DNA of 64,000 nt from Escherichia coli. Its GTDB lineage: Bacteria > Pseudomonadota > Gammaproteobacteria > Enterobacterales > Enterobacteriaceae. Location: NCBI RefSeq assembly GCF_003790525.1, contig NZ_CP033635.1. One strand, given 5' to 3'. The translations under genes were made by a program, and so were the position numbers. Position 1 is the stretch's first letter; each line of letters begins with the position of its first letter. Below, one piece after another: positions 2,826 through 29,993 of the stretch. The notes under the pieces were generated by a model, which saw only the letters and a program-made list of their open reading frames with translations, was not told where the DNA came from and did no database searches.

Positions 2826-2901
2826 TGGCAGGGGCGGAGAGACTCGAACTCCCAACACCCGGTTTTGGAGACCGGTGCTCTACCAATTGAACTACGCCCC
2901 T
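2826..2901 (-). tRNA. trpT: tRNA-Trp (CCA), 76 nt
   Basis: Reverse complement reads AGGGGCGTAGTTCAATTGGTAGAGCACCGGTCTCCAAAACCGGGTGTTGGGAGTTCGAGTCTCTCCGCCCCTGCCA. Confidence 0.95.
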
Positions 2902-2909
2902 AATTAGGG

Positions 2910-2986
2910 TGGCGGAACGGACGGGACTCGAACCCGCGACCCCCTGCGTGACAGGCAGGTATTCTAACCGACTGAACTACCGCTCC
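2910..2986 (-). tRNA. aspT: tRNA-Asp (GUC), 77 nt
   Basis: Reverse complement reads GGAGCGGTAGTTCAGTCGGTTAGAATACCTGCCTGTCACGCAGGGGGTCGCGGGTTCGAGTCCCGTCCGTTCCGCCA. Confidence 0.95.
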
Positions 2987-3038
2987 ACCGAATTCTTTTA
3001 CAACCACCGGTTTTATGACCGGCTTACTGCTTAATTTG

Positions 3039-3158
3039 ATGCCTGGCAGTTCCCTACTCTCGCATGGGGAGACCCCACACTACCATCGGCGCTACGGCGT
3101 TTCACTTCTGAGTTCGGCATGGGGTCAGGTGGGACCACCGCGCTAAGGCCGCCAGGCA
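3039..3158 (-). rRNA. rrfC: 5S rRNA, 120 nt
   Basis: Reverse complement begins TGCCTGGCGGCC...GGGAACTGCCAGGCAT, the E. coli 5S sequence. Confidence 0.95.
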
Positions 3159-3252
3159 AATTCTGTTTATCAGACCGCTTCTGCGTTCTGATTTAATCTG
3201 TTATCAAGCTTACTTATCGATGTCTCTTCCGCCAAAACATCTTCGGCGTTGT

Positions 3253-6158
<2,906 letters not shown>

Positions 6159-6342
6159 TCACAACCCGAAGATGTTTCACTTCAGAGTTGCGAAAATTTG
6201 AGAGACTCACGAACAACTTTCGTTGTTCAGTGTTTCAATTTTCAGCTTGATCCAGATTTTTAAAGAGCAAATATCTCAAACGTCACCCGAAGATGAGTTT
6301 TGAGATATTAAGGCAGGTGACTTTCACTCACAAACCAGCAAG

Positions 6343-6418
6343 TGGCGTCCCCTAGGGGATTCGAACCCCTGTTACCGCCGTGAAAGGGCGGTGTCCTGGG
6401 CCTCTAGACGAAGGGGAC
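6343..6418 (-). tRNA. gltU: tRNA-Glu (UUC) in the 16S-23S spacer
   Basis: Reverse complement reads GTCCCCTTCGTCTAGAGGCCCAGGACACCGCCCTTTCACGGCGGTAACAGGGGTTCGAATCCCCTAGGGGACGCCA. Confidence 0.95.
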
Positions 6419-6503
6419 GTGTCAGTCTGCTTCGCAAGACGCCTTGCTTTTCACTTTCTATCAGACAATCTGTGTGAGCACTGCAAAGTACGCTTCTTTA
6501 AGG

Positions 6504-8045
<1,542 letters not shown>

Positions 8046-8523: not shown

Positions 8524-9216
8524 ATGCCTTTAAGCGCACAACAGTTAGCTGCACAGAAAAACCTTTCGTATGTTCTGGCTGAGAAGCTGGCGCAACGCAT
8601 CTTAAAAGGTGAATATGAACCCGGCACCATTTTGCCTGGTGAGATTGAGCTGGGCGAGCAATTTGGAGTGAGTCGTACAGCGGTACGCGAAGCGGTCAAA
8701 ACGTTAACGGCAAAAGGGATGGTTTTACCGCGACCGCGAATTGGTACCCGGGTCATGCCACAATCAAACTGGAATTTTCTTGATCAGGAATTGCTTACCT
8801 GGTGGATGACAGAAGAGAACTTTCATCAGGTCATCGATCACTTTCTGGTTATGCGTATCTGTCTGGAGCCGCAAGCTTGCCTACTGGCTGCAACGGTTGG
8901 CACCGCGGAACAGAAGGCGCATCTCAATACGTTAATGGCCGAAATGGTGGCATTAAAAGAGAACTTTCGCCGTGAACGCTGGATTGAGGTCGATATGGCC
9001 TGGCATGAGCATATCTATGAAATGAGCGCCAATCCGTTTTTGACCTCATTCGCCTCGCTATTCCATTCGGTTTATCACACTTACTTCACGTCAATAACCA
9101 GCGACACAGTGATAAAGCTGGATCTGCACCAGGCGATTGTCGATGCGATTATCCAAAGCGATGGCGACGCGGCATTTAAAGCTTGTCAGGCGCTGCTACG
9201 CTCACCAGATAAGTGA
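8524..9216 (+). CDS. yieP: GntR/FadR-family transcriptional regulator YieP, 230 aa
   Basis: N-terminal GntR-type HTH (GEIELGEQFGVSRTAVREAVKTL) with FadR-like C-terminal domain; RBS AAGGAGG upstream. Confidence 0.85.
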   Translation: MPLSAQQLAAQKNLSYVLAEKLAQRILKGEYEPGTILPGEIELGEQFGVSRTAVREAVKTLTAKGMVLPRPRIGTRVMPQSNWNFLDQELLTWWMTEENFHQVIDHFLVMRICLEPQACLLAATVGTAEQKAHLNTLMAEMVALKENFRRERWIEVDMAWHEHIYEMSANPFLTSFASLFHSVYHTYFTSITSDTVIKLDLHQAIVDAIIQSDGDAAFKACQALLRSPDK

Positions 9217-9238
9217 TAACCCGATAACAGGACATTGA

Positions 9239-10666
9239 ATGAGCGATAAAAAGAAGCGCAGTATGGCGGGTTTGCCGTGGATCGCGGCGATGGCCTTCTT
9301 CATGCAGGCACTTGATGCCACTATTCTGAATACCGCCTTACCCGCAATCGCTCATAGCCTTAATCGTTCTCCTCTCGCGATGCAATCAGCCATCATCAGT
9401 TATACGCTGACGGTGGCGATGCTTATTCCGGTAAGCGGATGGCTAGCCGATCGCTTCGGTACGCGTCGCATATTTACCCTTGCCGTGAGTCTGTTCACGT
9501 TGGGTTCTCTGGCCTGCGCACTTTCTAACTCGCTACCACAGCTGGTTGTCTTCCGGGTTATTCAAGGGATAGGCGGCGCAATGATGATGCCTGTTGCTCG
9601 GCTGGCCTTACTGCGCGCTTATCCTCGTAATGAGCTTCTTCCTGTATTGAATTTTGTCGCCATGCCGGGTCTGGTGGGGCCAATTTTAGGCCCCGTTCTT
9701 GGCGGCGTGCTGGTCACCTGGGCAACCTGGCACTGGATATTTTTAATCAATATCCCCATAGGTATTGCGGGCCTTCTTTACGCGCGCAAACATATGCCCA
9801 ATTTCACCACCGCACGACGCAGATTCGATATCACTGGCTTTTTGCTGTTTGGCCTTAGCCTTGTTCTCTTCTCAAGCGGAATAGAGCTATTCGGGGAAAA
9901 GATTGTCGCCAGTTGGATTGCCTTGACGGTAATTGTCACCAGCATCGGGTTACTGCTTCTCTATATTCTCCATGCACGACGCACGCCAAACCCATTAATT
10001 TCATTAGATTTATTTAAAACCCGCACTTTCTCGATCGGTATCGTAGGCAATATTGCAACCCGTCTGGGGACCGGTTGTGTACCGTTCCTTATGCCATTGA
10101 TGTTACAGGTAGGATTTGGTTATCAGGCGTTTATTGCCGGCTGTATGATGGCACCGACAGCGTTAGGTTCCATTATTGCAAAATCGATGGTTACCCAAGT
10201 CTTACGTCGTCTGGGCTATCGCCATACGTTAGTGGGGATCACGGTGATTATTGGGCTAATGATCGCTCAGTTCTCTTTGCAATCACCGGCAATGGCGATA
10301 TGGATGCTGATCTTGCCGTTGTTTATATTAGGGATGGCTATGTCGACGCAATTTACCGCGATGAATACCATCACACTTGCCGATCTGACCGATGACAACG
10401 CCAGCAGCGGTAACAGTGTTCTGGCGGTCACGCAGCAACTGTCTATCAGTTTAGGCGTTGCTGTAAGTGCGGCCGTCCTTCGCGTTTATGAAGGGATGGA
10501 AGGCACAACGACTGTCGAACAATTCCACTATACGTTTATCACGATGGGCATTATTACTGTTGCTTCAGCAGCAATGTTCATGCTTCTGAAAACAACCGAT
10601 GGTAATAATTTGATCAAAAGACAGCGTAAATCTAAGCCGAACCGCGTTCCATCAGAATCGGAGTAA
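9239..10666 (+). CDS. hsrA: MFS efflux transporter HsrA/YieO, 475 aa
   Basis: Highly hydrophobic multi-span translation with MFS signature [11 protein letters not shown]; conserved position next to yieP. Confidence 0.85.
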
Positions 10667-11624
10667 GTTGTAATCGTTGTTGCTGAAGGGTCGGTTGGGT
10701 TATCCGATGGATGAGTACATCAATCGCCAGCTCCCCCAGTTCATCTTTCGGTTGATGGATAGTGGTTAATGGTGGCGTCATAAAGCTTGCCAGTTCGATA
10801 TCGTCATAGCCAATCACCGCGATATCCTGCGGAACCTGTAACTCTGCCTGATATAGCGCCTGGTAAACGCCAACAGCCATAGCGTCATTTCCGGTAAAGA
10901 CGGCCTGAGGACGCAGCGGATGTGATAACAGTTGGCGCATAGCGTCAAACCCGCCGTTAAATTCAAAATCACCAGTGACTTCATAGCCATCAGGAATGTT
11001 GAGACCCGCACGTTTCATCGCCGCCCGATAACCTTCCAACCTCAGGCGCGCCGGAGTTTTATCCAGCGGGCCGGTAATACAGGCGATACGGGTATGACCT
11101 TTATCGATCAGATATTGCGTTGCTAAGTCTCCGCCCAGCAACGAGTTATCCTGAATAAGATCGCTGTCGCCATCGAACGGTGCCCAGTCCATCATCACGG
11201 TAGGCACTGTCGGATAACGTTGCATGATTTCACGCGAAGGCTGATGCGTTTCGGTGCACAGTAACAGCAAGCCATCAACGCGTTTTTGCATCAGCGTTTC
11301 CAGATTGCGATTCATCCGTTGTTCATCGCCTTCGGTATTGCAAAGGACGAGACTATAACCGCGTTCGAAGCAGCTGCGTTCAACGCCACGCACCAGTTCT
11401 GAATAGAAAGGATTGGTACTGGCAGTGATCAACATGCCAATGGTATGTGTTTGATTGAGTTTGAGGCTACGCGCCAGAGCTGATGGCGCGTAATTGAGTT
11501 CTTTAATCGCCGCTTCAACTTTGGCGGTAATCGCTTCACTGACGAAGCGATCTTTATTGATAACGTGAGAAACTGTTGAGGTAGAAACGCCCGCCAGGCG
11601 GGCAACATCTTTCATTGTAGCCAA
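10632..11624 (-). CDS. rbsR: Ribose operon repressor RbsR (LacI family), 330 aa
   Basis: N-terminal Lac[27 protein letters not shown]; 3' end overlaps hsrA convergently by 35 bp. Confidence 0.9.
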
Positions 11625-11627
11625 GCG

Positions 11628-12557
11628 TCACCTCTGCCTGTCTAAAAATGCGTCGATCTCTTCACGCCACGGTACGGAAGGTTGTGCGCCTTTACGTGTT
11701 ACGGCAATCGCAGCGGCAGCATGGGCAAACCGAATCGCCTCTGGCAATGGTTTTTCTTCCAGCAACGCCGTGATTAACGCGCCGTTAAAGGTATCTCCGG
11801 CAGCAATGGTATCGACAGCCTGCACCCGGAATCCAGGAACGCGCTGACCTTCACCATTCACGCTAGCCCATACACCACGACTTCCTAAAGTAATCAGTAC
11901 AGTACGGATACCTTTTTCATGCAGTACCTGCGCCGCCTTCGCTGCATCTTCATCATTTTCAACACGAATACCGGTGAGCTTTTCTGCTTCCGTTTCGTTT
12001 GGCGTAATAATGTCCACCAGTGCCAGCAGTTCGTCAGGAAGTTCGCGAGCCGGAGCCGGGTTAAGCGCAACGATAGTCTTATTTTGATGGGCGATTTTCG
12101 CCGCTGCCATCACACTTTCGAGTGGTGATTCCAGCTGCATTAATAATGCTGACGCGTTGGCAATACGCTCACGTTGCGCTTCCACCAGTGCCGGGGAAAG
12201 GGCAGCATTAGCGCCGGCATGAATACCGATGACATTCTCACCTTCGCCATTAACAAAAATCAGCGCCACACCTGTTGATTCGCCTTTGATCACGCTGACC
12301 GGAGAAATATCGATGTTATCAGTGGCGAGCTGCTGGCGAACGCTCTCACCAATGCTGTCATCGCCAGTGCAGGCAATAAACGCGATATTCGCACCGCTAC
12401 GCCCAGCAGCCACAGCCTGATTAGCGCCTTTGCCGCCAAATGCAACCTGATAGTGGTTACCGGTTACGGTTTCGCCTGGGGTAGGAAAAGATTGAAGATT
12501 AAGAATGTGGTCAGCATTAATGCTGCCAAGAACAACGAGGCTGCCTGCGTTTTGCAT
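11628..12557 (-). CDS. rbsK: Ribokinase, 309 aa from the internal Met
   Basis: PfkB-family motifs (GGKGANQA, DTIAAGDTFNGA); ORF track begins 9 codons upstream at 12584. Confidence 0.9.
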   Translation of the reverse strand: MQNAGSLVVLGSINADHILNLQSFPTPGETVTGNHYQVAFGGKGANQAVAAGRSGANIAFIACTGDDSIGESVRQQLATDNIDISPVSVIKGESTGVALIFVNGEGENVIGIHAGANAALSPALVEAQRERIANASALLMQLESPLESVMAAAKIAHQNKTIVALNPAPARELPDELLALVDIITPNETEAEKLTGIRVENDEDAAKAAQVLHEKGIRTVLITLGSRGVWASVNGEGQRVPGFRVQAVDTIAAGDTFNGALITALLEEKPLPEAIRFAHAAAAIAVTRKGAQPSVPWREEIDAFLDRQR

Positions 12558-12682
12558 ATTCGGGATGTCCATAAAATGCGCCACCGTGTTAGGGTGGCGC
12601 GTGCCCTGCTTTTCTTTATATTACACGTTCATCTGTCGATGCCGTATTTATGTCACCATCAGGTCATACAACCTGATTAAAA

Positions 12683-13573
12683 CTACTGCTTAACAACCAG
12701 TTTCAGATCAACCGGATACTTAGCCTGAACTTTCTCACCTTTCAGTACTTTATCGGCGGTTTCGACGCCTTTCGCGCCAATCTGATCGGGTAGCTGAGCG
12801 ATAGTCGCTGCTAGTTTGCCATCATTCACCGCTTTTTCGCCATCCGGTGTACCGTCAAATCCGACGACCATCACATCCGATTTACCGGCAGTTTGCAGTG
12901 CGCGCAGCGCGCCCAGCGCCATTTCATCATTCTGCGCGAATACAGCCTGAACATCCGGATGTGCGGTCAACAGGTTCTGCATTACGTTCAAACCTTTAGT
13001 GCGATCAAAATCTGCTGGCTGGCTGGCAAGAACATTAAACTTGTGAGCAGCAACAGCCTGCTGGAAGCCTTCGCCACGTTCACGGGCTGCGGATGTACCG
13101 GCAATGCCTTGCAGCTCGATAACTTTGGCACCTTCACCCGCTTTCTTCGCGATGTAATCACCGGCGATTTTGCCGCCCAGTACGTTATCAGAAGCAATGT
13201 GGCTCACCACTTCACCTTTCGTTGCCTGGCGGTCAAGAGTGATAACCGGGATGTTCGCCTGGTTAGCCATCTTCACAGCATTACCCACTGCGTCGGAGTC
13301 GGTCGGGTTAATCAGCAGAATTTTGGTGCCGCGAACGGTTAAGTCCTGCACGTTCGCCAGCTCTTTCGCCGGGTTATTCTGGGAGTCCAGCACCACCAGG
13401 TTATAGCCAAGTTTATCCGCCTCTTTCTGCGCGCCATCTTTCAGCGATACAAAGAACGGGTTGTTAAGCGTGGAGACCACCAGCGCGATGGTGTCTTTTG
13501 CCATCGCATTCGCACTGACGGTGGCGCTTAGCGCAACAGCGGAAACCAGGGTAGCCAGTTTTTTCATGTTCAT
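12683..13573 (-). CDS. rbsB: Periplasmic ribose-binding protein
   Basis: Signal peptide [23 protein letters not shown] followed by type I periplasmic binding protein fold; start could be 13579. Confidence 0.9.
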
Positions 13574-22847: not shown

Positions 22848-23306
22848 ATGGAAAATTATCTGATCGACAATCTGGACCGCGGCATCCTGGAAGCATTAAT
22901 GGAAAATGCACGCACTGCTTACGCCGAACTGGCGAAACAATTTGGTGTAAGCCCGGGGACGATTCACGTTCGTGTAGAGAAAATGAAGCAGGCGGGAATC
23001 ATTACAGGGGCGCGTATTGACGTCAGCCCGAAACAGCTCGGTTATGACGTAGGCTGCTTTATCGGCATTATATTGAAGAGTGCCAAAGACTATCCTTCCG
23101 CGCTGGCAAAGCTGGAAAGCCTTGATGAAGTCACCGAGGCCTACTACACCACCGGCCACTACAGCATCTTTATCAAAGTGATGTGCCGTTCGATCGACGC
23201 CCTCCAGCATGTACTTATCAACAAGATCCAAACAATTGATGAAATTCAGTCCACCGAGACACTGATCGTCCTGCAAAACCCGATCATGCGTACCATCAAG
23301 CCATGA
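22848..23306 (+). CDS. asnC: Lrp/AsnC-family regulator AsnC, 152 aa
   Basis: Divergent from asnA; AsnC-type HTH plus RAM domain. Confidence 0.9.
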   Translation: MENYLIDNLDRGILEALMENARTAYAELAKQFGVSPGTIHVRVEKMKQAGIITGARIDVSPKQLGYDVGCFIGIILKSAKDYPSALAKLESLDEVTEAYYTTGHYSIFIKVMCRSIDALQHVLINKIQTIDEIQSTETLIVLQNPIMRTIKP

Positions 23307-23395
23307 TCGGCTTTTTTAATCCCATACTTTTCCACAGGTAGATCCCAGCGCGTTCACAGCGTACAATACGCCACTCTTAATAAAGGTGGCGGTTT

Positions 23396-23839
23396 ATGGC
23401 AGATATCACTCTTATCAGCGGCAGCACCCTCGGCGGTGCCGAATATGTAGCAGAACACCTGGCTGAAAAGCTGGAAGAGGCGGGTTTTACCACCGAAACG
23501 CTGCACGGTCCGCTGTTGGAAGAATTATCTGCCTCGGGGATCTGGCTGGTTATCAGTTCCACCCACGGTGCCGGAGATATTCCGGACAACCTTTCTCCTT
23601 TCTATGAAGCATTACAGGAACAAAAGCCCGATCTTTCTGCGGTACGCTTTGGCGCAATCGGTATTGGCAGTCGTGAATACGACACCTTTTGTGGGGCTAT
23701 CGATAAACTCGAGGCAGAACTCAAAAATTCCGGTGCAAAACAGACAGGCGAAACACTGAAGATCAACATCCTTGATCACGACATTCCTGAAGATCCGGCA
23801 GAAGAATGGCTGGGATCGTGGATTAATTTACTCAAATAA
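23396..23839 (+). CDS. mioC: Flavodoxin-like FMN protein MioC, 147 aa
   Basis: Translation MADITLISGSTLGGAEYVAEHLAEKLEEAGF...; lies immediately beside oriC. Confidence 0.9.
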   Translation: MADITLISGSTLGGAEYVAEHLAEKLEEAGFTTETLHGPLLEELSASGIWLVISSTHGAGDIPDNLSPFYEALQEQKPDLSAVRFGAIGIGSREYDTFCGAIDKLEAELKNSGAKQTGETLKINILDHDIPEDPAEEWLGSWINLLK

Positions 23840-23845
23840 GTATAC

Positions 23846-24130
23846 AGATCGTGCGATCCACTGTGGATAACTCTGTCAGGAAGCTTGGATCAACCGGTAG
23901 TTATCCAAAGAACAACGGTTGTTCAGTTTTTGAGTTGTGTATAACCCCTCATTCTGATCCCAGCTTATACGGTCCAGGATCACCGATCATTCACAGTTAA
24001 TGATCCTTTCCAGGTTGTTGATCTTAAAAGCCGGATCCTTGTTATCCACAGGGCAGTGCGATCCTAATAAGAGATCACAATAGAACAGATCTCTAAATAA
24101 ATAGATCTTCTTTTTAATACCCAGGATCCC
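23846..24130. other. oriC: Chromosomal replication origin oriC
   Basis: DnaA boxes TGTGGATAA (23862-23870), TTATCCAAA (23901-23909), TGTGTATAA (23936-23944), TTATCCACA (24042-24050); three AT-rich 13-mers each ending GATC (24064-24076, 24080-24092, 24095-24107); 14 GATC sites by my count; sits between mioC and mnmG. Confidence 0.92.
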
Positions 24131-24217
24131 AGGTCTTTCTCAAGCCGACAAAGTTGAGTAGAATCCACGGCCCGGGCTTCAATCCATTTTCATACCGCGT
24201 TATGCGAGGCAATCACC

Positions 24218-26107
24218 ATGTTTTATCCGGATCCTTTTGACGTCATCATCATTGGCGGGGGTCATGCAGGCACCGAGGCCGCGATGGCCGCGGCGCGTAT
24301 GGGTCAACAGACTCTGCTTTTGACACACAATATCGACACTCTGGGGCAGATGAGCTGCAACCCGGCGATCGGCGGTATTGGGAAGGGACATCTGGTAAAA
24401 GAAGTGGATGCACTCGGCGGTCTGATGGCGAAAGCGATCGATCTGGCGGGTATCCAGTTTAGGATACTAAACGCAAGTAAGGGACCGGCAGTTCGCGCTA
24501 CCCGAGCTCAGGCGGATCGTGTGCTCTACCGGCAGGCGGTACGTACGGCGCTGGAGAACCAACCGAACCTGATGATCTTCCAGCAGGCAGTTGAAGATCT
24601 TATTGTCGAAAACGATCGCGTGGTCGGAGCCGTTACCCAAATGGGACTGAAGTTCCGTGCCAAAGCTGTCGTGCTCACCGTTGGGACGTTCCTCGACGGT
24701 AAAATTCATATCGGTCTGGATAACTACAGCGGTGGCCGTGCTGGTGATCCGCCGTCCATTCCGCTTTCTCGCCGTTTGCGTGAACTGCCGCTGCGCGTTG
24801 GTCGTCTGAAAACCGGGACACCACCGCGTATTGATGCTCGAACCATCGACTTTAGCGTACTGGCGCAACAGCATGGCGATAACCCAATGCCGGTATTCTC
24901 GTTTATGGGCAATGCGTCCCAGCATCCCCAGCAGGTGCCGTGTTATATCACTCATACCAACGAGAAAACCCATGATGTGATCCGCAGTAACCTCGATCGT
25001 AGCCCAATGTACGCAGGGGTGATCGAAGGTGTCGGCCCACGCTACTGCCCGTCGATCGAAGACAAAGTCATGCGCTTCGCCGACAGAAATCAGCATCAGA
25101 TCTTCCTTGAACCGGAAGGGCTGACCTCTAACGAAATTTATCCGAACGGTATCTCCACCAGCCTGCCGTTCGATGTGCAGATGCAAATCGTCCGCTCCAT
25201 GCAGGGGATGGAAAACGCGAAGATCGTGCGTCCGGGTTATGCCATTGAGTATGACTTCTTCGATCCACGCGACCTGAAACCGACGCTGGAGAGCAAGTTT
25301 ATCCAGGGGCTGTTCTTTGCTGGTCAGATTAACGGCACTACCGGTTACGAAGAAGCCGCTGCGCAAGGTTTGCTGGCTGGTCTTAACGCTGCCCGTCTGT
25401 CTGCAGACAAAGAAGGTTGGGCTCCGGCGCGTTCTCAGGCGTATCTCGGCGTACTGGTTGATGACCTGTGCACTTTAGGAACCAAAGAACCGTATCGTAT
25501 GTTTACCTCGCGCGCAGAATATCGTCTGATGCTGCGCGAAGATAATGCGGATCTGCGTTTGACTGAAATCGGTCGTGAACTGGGCCTGGTGGATGACGAA
25601 CGTTGGGCGCGCTTTAACGAGAAACTTGAGAATATCGAGCGTGAGCGTCAGCGTCTGAAATCGACCTGGGTAACCCCGTCGGCGGAAGCTGCAGCCGAAG
25701 TGAATGCTCACCTGACTGCGCCACTTTCCCGTGAAGCCAGTGGTGAAGATCTGCTGCGTCGTCCGGAAATGACTTATGAAAAATTAACCACGCTGACGCC
25801 GTTTGCCCCTGCGTTGACAGACGAACAGGCGGCGGAACAGGTTGAGATTCAGGTTAAATACGAAGGTTATATCGCGCGCCAGCAAGATGAGATCGAAAAG
25901 CAGCTGCGTAACGAGAACACCCTGCTACCAGCGACGCTGGATTACCGCCAGGTATCCGGTCTTTCTAACGAAGTGATCGCCAAACTTAACGATCACAAAC
26001 CGGCCTCTATCGGTCAGGCTTCGCGTATTTCTGGCGTCACGCCTGCGGCCATCTCCATTCTGCTGGTGTGGCTGAAAAAACAGGGTATGCTGCGTCGTAG
26101 CGCATAA
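24218..26107 (+). CDS. mnmG: tRNA uridine 5-carboxymethylaminomethyl modification enzyme MnmG (GidA), 629 aa
   Basis: N-terminal FAD-binding GxGxxG ([20 protein letters not shown]); full-length GidA-like translation. Confidence 0.92.
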
Positions 26108-27398: not shown

Positions 27399-28615
<1,217 letters not shown>

Positions 28616-28643
28616 TTTACCAACACTACTACGTTTTAACTGA

Positions 28644-28918
<275 letters not shown>

Positions 28919-28962
28919 TAAAGAGCAATATCAGAACGTTAACTAAATAGAGGCATTGTGCT

Positions 28963-29433
28963 GTGAATCTTAACGCAACAATCCTCGGCCAGGCCATCGC
29001 GTTTGTCCTGTTCGTTCTGTTCTGCATGAAGTACGTATGGCCGCCATTAATGGCAGCCATCGAAAAACGTCAAAAAGAAATTGCTGACGGCCTTGCTTCC
29101 GCAGAACGAGCACATAAGGACCTTGACCTTGCAAAGGCCAGCGCGACCGACCAGCTGAAAAAAGCGAAAGCGGAAGCCCAGGTAATCATCGAGCAGGCGA
29201 ACAAACGCCGCTCGCAGATTCTGGACGAAGCTAAAGCTGAAGCAGAGCAGGAACGTACTAAAATCGTGGCCCAGGCGCAGGCGGAAATTGAAGCCGAGCG
29301 TAAACGTGCCCGTGAAGAGCTGCGTAAGCAAGTTGCTATCCTGGCTGTTGCTGGCGCCGAGAAGATCATCGAACGTTCCGTGGATGAAGCTGCTAACAGC
29401 GACATCGTGGATAAACTTGTCGCTGAACTGTAA
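28963..29433 (+). CDS. atpF: F0F1 ATP synthase subunit b, 156 aa
   Basis: N-terminal TM helix then long charged helix; operon position. Confidence 0.93.
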
Positions 29434-29447
29434 GGAGGGAGGGGCTG

Positions 29448-29981
29448 ATGTCTGAATTTATTACGGTAGCTCGCCCCTACGCCAAAGCAGCTTTTGACTT
29501 TGCCGTCGAACACCAAAGTGTAGAACGCTGGCAGGACATGCTGGCGTTTGCCGCCGAGGTAACCAAAAACGAACAAATGGCAGAGCTTCTCTCTGGCGCG
29601 CTTGCGCCAGAAACGCTCGCCGAGTCGTTTATCGCAGTTTGTGGTGAGCAACTGGACGAAAACGGTCAGAACCTGATTCGGGTAATGGCTGAAAATGGTC
29701 GTCTTAACGCGCTCCCGGATGTTCTGGAGCAGTTTATTCACCTGCGTGCCGTGAGTGAGGCTACCGCTGAGGTAGACGTCATTTCCGCTGCCGCGTTGAG
29801 TGAACAACAGCTCGCGAAAATTTCTGCTGCGATGGAAAAACGTCTGTCACGCAAAGTTAAGCTGAATTGCAAAATCGATAAGTCTGTAATGGCAGGCGTT
29901 ATCATCCGAGCGGGTGATATGGTCATTGATGGCAGCGTACGCGGTCGTCTTGAGCGCCTTGCAGACGTCTTGCAGTCTTAA
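29448..29981 (+). CDS. atpH: F0F1 ATP synthase subunit delta, 177 aa
   Basis: Operon position and OSCP-like translation. Confidence 0.93.
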
Positions 29982-29993
29982 GGGGACTGGAGC

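Follow-up and report, generated by a model that had tools for sequence, protein, structure and literature searches.

The segment at positions 23846-24130 of the window (the whole 64,000-nucleotide stretch of Escherichia coli DNA analysed here) is, judging from its sequence and with a rough probability of 0.98, oriC, the one replication origin on the chromosome of an E. coli strain that is a close relative of SMS-3-5. It is the textbook E. coli oriC, already known, and represents a correct landmark and no discovery. The locus is counted as oriC on the basis of its near-identity to the K-12 origin, its full set of origin elements, its conserved position between mioC and mnmG, and the switch in GC skew at this place. 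A first-pass annotation had recognized oriC from its DnaA boxes, a 13-mer unwinding element and a dense GATC cluster, and this identification is borne out, with all three kinds of element lying within the segment far above chance; its remark that the finding is well known is equally apt, as oriC lies between mioC and mnmG just as in K-12. The origin therefore serves as a map anchor only, fixing the window as rrnC ... oriC ... atp ... tnaA and giving the fork direction on each side, and adds nothing new on replication initiation.

Identity and copy number of the origin

The segment is the reverse complement of the K-12 oriC, and pairwise alignment with the annotated origin_of_replication feature of K-12 MG1655, the reference comparison that had been proposed as a check, gave 283 matching bases out of 285. 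Classical positions are obtained as 24130 minus the window coordinate, the numbering beginning at the BamHI site GGATCC (24124-24129), and the flagged segment corresponds to classical positions 0-284, as the reverse complement with respect to K-12 numbering. The minimal oriC occupies 23863-24107 (classical 23-267, 245 bp, 11 GATC sites), and the segment as a whole comprises this entire 245-bp minimal origin, extended toward mnmG by the AT-cluster and the BamHI site and toward mioC by 17 nt past R4. The origin_of_replication feature in the MG1655 RefSeq record (232 bp) maps to 23876-24107 and omits both R4 (23862-23870) and the AT-cluster, so that anyone who uses it as "oriC" obtains a truncated origin.

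Over the 601 bp around oriC, the window is 100% identical to E. coli SMS-3-5. The oriC query was matched in 5424 of 5426 complete E. coli genomes, at a median of one place per genome, and all 5826 matching places in these 5424 genomes are chromosomal, with none on a plasmid; oriC is thus present in single copy per chromosome. Insertions into oriC were considered for approximately 360 genomes in which less than 80% of the query was covered in one place, and were rejected, as the matches are split at the oriC edge. This explanation is drawn from the listed low-coverage records, all of which begin or end at the oriC edge, and such a start or end probably explains most of the several hundred split records. 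For example, coordinate 1 of both NZ_CP074721.1 and NZ_CP076241.1 corresponds to window position 23840, the base after the mioC stop codon.

DnaA boxes and the IHF site

The K-12 oriC has been described as consisting of a duplex unwinding element (DUE) of three 13-mers, one IHF site and a DnaA-oligomerization region of twelve boxes; R1 is a perfect-consensus box there, and the end boxes R1 and R4 together with R2 define the DnaA-oligomerization region (PMC5716108). Perfect DnaA boxes (TTATNCACA) occur three times in 23846-24130, against 0.03 expected (an approximately 100-fold enrichment), and six times on both strands of the whole 64 kb, half of them within oriC. The three are R1 (TTATCCACA, 24042-24050, + strand), a high-affinity box at the outer end of the Left-DOR; R2 (TTATACACA, 23936-23944, - strand) in the Middle-DOR; and R4 (TTATCCACA, 23862-23870, - strand), a high-affinity box at the outer end of the Right-DOR. 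R1 and R4, in opposite orientation, thus delimit the DnaA-oligomerization region, with R2 between them. Two further boxes, R5M (TCATTCACA, 23987-23995, + strand) and R3 (TTATCCAAA, 23901-23909, + strand), each differ from the DnaA box by one mismatch.

The left low-affinity array on the + strand (23954-23995) consists of 9-nt boxes with 2-nt spacing, namely R5M, tau2 (23976-23984), I1 (23965-23973) and I2 (23954-23962). For tau2, I1 and I2, naming and order follow the published oriC map and PMC5716108. On the other side, the right array region with the putative boxes C3, C2, I3 and C1 plus R3 spans 23873-23914 on the - strand; boxes placed at 2-nt spacing from R4 matched C1, I3, C2 and C3 poorly, and only the region is given.

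An IHF-site-like sequence (GATCAACAACCTG, 24011-24023, - strand) lies between R1 and R5M and contains a GATC. It was the best match in a scan for the IHF consensus, a loose one with two mismatches to WATCAANNNNTTR and weak evidence when taken alone; its sequence is identical to that of K-12, and by this identity the known K-12 IHF site is present. An IHF site with a GATC, IBS1, has also been reported (PMC10380432). Read from the mnmG side, the order of elements is AT-cluster, L, M, R, R1, IHF-like site, R5M, tau2, I1, I2, R2, right region with R3, and R4.

Unwinding element and GATC sites

The unwinding element, which had been noted as a single 13-mer, comprises three GATC-initiated AT-rich 13-mers adjoining R1, all on the - strand: L (GATCTATTTATTT, L-DUE, 24095-24107), M (GATCTGTTCTATT, M-DUE, 24079-24091) and R (GATCTCTTATTAG, R-DUE, 24064-24076), the last identical to K-12. 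[quoted passage not shown] The strict textbook 13-mer consensus (GATCTNTTNTTTT) had zero exact matches in the window, and the 13-mers were found with a relaxed pattern and by direct comparison with K-12, as the real 13-mers deviate from the consensus, in K-12 as well as here. The strict consensus is a poor detector, and its absence is no argument against a DUE. The stretch holding the three 13-mers and the AT-cluster (24066-24129) is 70% AT, which ranks within the top 0.8% of 64-nt windows when the two low-GC islands are excluded.

Within the 285 nt of 23846-24130 there are 14 GATC sites, starting at 23847, 23855, 23888, 23956, 23978, 23985, 24002, 24020, 24034, 24060, 24073, 24088, 24104 and 24125. 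About 1.3 would be expected from the window-wide rate (290 in 64 kb, or 4.5 per kb), an 11-fold enrichment with a Poisson P of approximately 1e-10, and the highest count in any other 285-nt stretch of the window is 7. [quoted passage not shown]

Comparison with K-12, SMS-3-5 and other species

The MG1655 oriC (NC_000913.3, 3925744..3925975; 245-bp minimal origin between gidA/mnmG and mioC) shares with the window the 13-mers, the AT-cluster, R1-R4, R5M, tau2, I1, I2, all 14 GATC sites and the flanking genes, and these common elements agree in sequence, spacing and orientation. The two differing bases are at 23859 (C in the window, T in K-12; classical 271), which lies beyond the minimal origin, 3 nt from R4 on its outer side, and at 23917 (G in the window, T in K-12; classical 213), between R2 and the C3/R3 boxes. 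Neither affects a named box or a GATC site. Position 23917 lies in an area for which Fis binding has been reported. Were the window's haplotype (C at 23859, G at 23917) to shift the timing or synchrony of initiation relative to K-12, natural oriC alleles would represent a tuning knob for initiation; such an effect is very unlikely, since both alignment columns are freely variable among 79 other Enterobacteriaceae species and each allele is common in E. coli: the sequence context of C at 23859 was matched in 547 and that of G at 23917 in 2237 of 5426 genomes. These counts refer to a 41-mer centred on each SNP, with which megablast cannot seed on the other allele.

The oriC of SMS-3-5 (NC_010498.1, about 4,205,5xx-4,205,8xx) is the closest comparison: beyond the fully identical 601 bp, its flank is 99.98% identical to the window over 40.6 kb, with 5 mismatches and 3 gaps, none of them in oriC, and it carries the same two accessory islands. 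The window is probably the DNA of a very close relative, or else a separate assembly.

Origins of the Enterobacteriaceae type (Salmonella, Klebsiella, Enterobacter, Citrobacter and others) share the mioC-oriC-mnmG placement, the order of elements and the GATC positions with the window at 72-97% identity, while divergence is seen in the spacers and around the IHF site and C1. When one genome per bacterial species was scanned with a pattern made solely of the M and R 13-mers and R1, 85 records matched, once each, nearly all of them titled Enterobacteriaceae. In every locus with enough flank among these 85, the match is bordered by mioC on one side and mnmG on the other, with orientation unchanged, at a median distance of 128 nt from the mnmG start (127 in the window) and 255 nt from the mioC end (255 in the window).

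Conservation was assessed in an alignment of 79 of these species loci, counting only the bases that the search pattern leaves free. Named elements show a mean identity of 91%, against 68% in spacers (Mann-Whitney P = 5e-15), and of the 12 remaining GATC sites, 10 are each preserved in 92% or more of the species. Per-base identity is 93-99% for R5M, tau2, I2, R2, R3 and R4 (96% for R2 and 99% for R4), 89-98% across the left-array boxes and 97% for the AT-cluster, and the GATC of the L 13-mer is kept in 96% of the species. The strongly conserved block of the right array corresponds to classical 222-240, and conservation is lowest around the IHF site (61%) and C1.

Flanking genes and transcription toward the origin

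The origin is flanked by mioC (23396-23839, + strand; NCBIfam MioC equivalog, 244 bits; RefSeq annotation), which points toward it, and by mnmG (gidA; 24218-26107, + strand; NCBIfam TIGR00136, 1016 bits; RefSeq annotation), which points away. Farther left is an rrnC-type operon (2826-8045, - strand; identified from Rfam, ARAGORN and RefSeq) with 16S, tRNA-Glu, 23S, 5S, tRNA-Asp and tRNA-Trp genes, whose 5' end is 15.8 kb from oriC and which is co-directional with the leftward fork. To the right, atpIBEFHAGDC (27411-34298, + strand; RefSeq annotation of the SMS-3-5 locus and NCBIfam equivalogs for AtpB, AtpA and AtpD) begins 3.3 kb from oriC and is co-directional with the rightward fork, and mnmG, rsmG, atpIBEFHAGDC, glmU and glmS all lie on the + strand, directed away from oriC. 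The first-pass description of the rRNA operon as transcribed leftward and the atp operon rightward, both with replication, is accordingly confirmed by their - and + strand positions. Its broader statement that gene orientation around the origin is as expected holds for these two operons but not for every gene, as asnC and mioC point toward oriC; co-directional coding bases amount to 63% on the left and 79% on the right of oriC, leaving 21-37% head-on.

Transcripts of mioC read through into oriC, and a scan from the mioC stop codon to oriC found no terminator-like site, which fits such read-through. Just upstream of mioC is a DnaA-box-like sequence (TTTTCCACA, 23328-23336, + strand), whose placement is consistent with a control by DnaA of mioC transcription into oriC. 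A terminator-like hairpin follows asnC at 23298-23313, and TTTTCCACA lies downstream of it. On the other side, a promoter-like site (TTCTCA-16-TAGAAT, 24137-24164, + strand) upstream of mnmG borders directly on the DUE and occupies the position of the known gid promoter, Pgid; at least 98% of the 79 species conserve its -35 block.

GC skew around the origin

The cumulative G-C curve of the window reaches its minimum at 24200 and rises thereafter; the skew is -0.055 to the left of oriC, or -0.031 if the rRNA operon is excluded, and +0.044 on the right side. At the level of the chromosome, skew was sampled in SMS-3-5 in ten stretches of approximately 50 kb (432 kb in total, about 9% of the chromosome). 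On the + strand, the 50-kb samples are positive at 4.22, 4.70, 0.20, 0.90 and 1.40 Mb and negative at 1.95, 2.60, 3.30, 3.90 and 4.16 Mb, and the sign mostly agrees in 10-kb sub-windows. One change of sign brackets oriC (4.2056 Mb); the other falls between 1.45 and 1.95 Mb, an interval that includes the antipode at 1.67 Mb. A skew minimum elsewhere on the chromosome had been named as evidence against the origin assignment; instead, the window minimum lies at 24200 and the SMS-3-5 samples flip sign at oriC, and the sampled skew is what an origin at 23846-24130 predicts.

In one of the sampled stretches (NC_010498.1, 900001-950000), around 8857-13366, lysO (at approximately 0.9 Mb in K-12) is followed by an IS110-family transposase and then by yohP-mdtQ-yohF (at approximately 2.2 Mb in K-12). 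This jump in gene order suggests a large IS-bounded inversion across the terminus in SMS-3-5, and the sampled skew still fits a roughly symmetric inversion.

Alternative readings of the locus

An oriC copy other than the active origin, whether a second, silent or duplicated one or one carried on a minichromosome or plasmid, might have the same sequence, and firing cannot be shown from sequence alone. One record, NZ_CP195942.1 (strain C1), does have two places for the 601-bp query, one of them full-length. Nevertheless, two-place records are almost all assemblies whose coordinate 1 lies at the oriC edge and splits the match, and the places found across the E. coli genomes are without exception chromosomal and at a median of one per genome. 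The window copy, moreover, is embedded in its complete native surroundings, with a gene order collinear with SMS-3-5 all the way from rrnC to tnaA, and both the local skew and the sampled chromosome skew switch at this locus, leaving an inactive copy with hardly any probability.

Comparably improbable is a locus that is no origin at all but titrates or recycles DnaA in the manner of datA or DARS, or simply contains promoters of mioC and mnmG under the control of Dam/SeqA and DnaA. In favour of this reading, regulatory loci can likewise carry DnaA boxes and GATC sites, the mnmG promoter-like site abuts the DUE and TTTTCCACA lies upstream of mioC, so that promoter regulation does belong to this neighbourhood. 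Neither datA nor DARS has a DUE of three GATC-initiated 13-mers, and their box arrangements differ, being head-to-head in DARS (PMC10380432), whereas 23846-24130 shows every part of the oriC architecture, matches the experimentally defined origin almost base for base and coincides with the skew switch. The assignment as the chromosomal oriC is thus retained.

Proposed course of initiation

That the oriC elements are present, conserved, and arranged and placed in the genome as described is demonstrated here, whereas the steps of initiation are established for the K-12 oriC and are applied here by near-identity, so that we infer origin activity from sequence. The roles of DnaA, IHF and the DUE at the K-12 oriC have been described (PMC5716108). 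By analogy, DnaA would occupy the high-affinity boxes R1, R2 and R4, and ATP-DnaA would fill two opposed low-affinity arrays, R5M-tau2-I1-I2 on the DUE side and C3-C2-I3-C1 beside R4, with IHF bending the DNA between R1 and R5M. The 13-mers M and R would be expected to unwind first, followed by L and the AT-cluster, while the DnaA oligomer holds the single strands; DnaB-DnaC would then be loaded and two forks would depart in opposite directions, the leftward one co-directional with the rrn operon and the rightward one with mnmG-rsmG-atp-glmUS. After firing, binding of SeqA to hemimethylated GATC sites would sequester the origin and prevent immediate re-initiation.

Accessory islands and other features of the window

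Two islands lie to the right of the origin, and both are regarded as accessory because K-12 lacks them at glmS-pstS and phoU-yieH. Island 1 (38316-43295, + strand, GC approximately 0.43) is a long polar fimbria operon, lpf-O113, of four genes (lpfA/B/C-O113 and a fimbrial protein) between glmS and pstS, which adjoin each other 313 bp apart in K-12. Island 2 (about 48.1-55.5 kb, 48123-55540; GC 0.31-0.38) lies between phoU and yieH, where it replaces the bglGFBH-yieLK-cbrCB block of K-12, and contains three large ORFs of 836 aa (+), 395 aa (-) and 808 aa (+). RefSeq names for it in other strains are T3SS effector EspY4 or type III effector and pentapeptide-repeat protein, and Pfam gave sub-threshold pentapeptide-repeat matches only. 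It occurs in 1088 of 5426 E. coli genomes at 80-100% identity, an unusually deep divergence for a chromosomal locus. A role as a defence island was considered and rejected, as PADLOC returned zero hits and the RefSeq names point to EspY4-type effector and pentapeptide-repeat proteins.

The islands begin 14.2 kb (island 1) and 24.0-24.4 kb (island 2) from oriC, in agreement with the earlier estimate of about 14 and 24 kb, and their main genes are co-directional with the fork. Both are within 0.5% of the chromosome length of oriC, where replication-associated gene dosage is highest, from which it would follow that they lie in a high-copy region, as had also been proposed.

Two further features were observed in the window. 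The sRNA STnc410 has a full-length Rfam match (188 bits) at 34406-34563 (- strand) in the atpC-glmU intergenic region, antisense to the flanking operons. In addition, tnaB (61500-62747, - strand), the gene for the low-affinity tryptophan permease, is cut short by a stop at codon 85 (approximately 62493-62495), and the SMS-3-5 gene is likewise flagged as a pseudogene in RefSeq.
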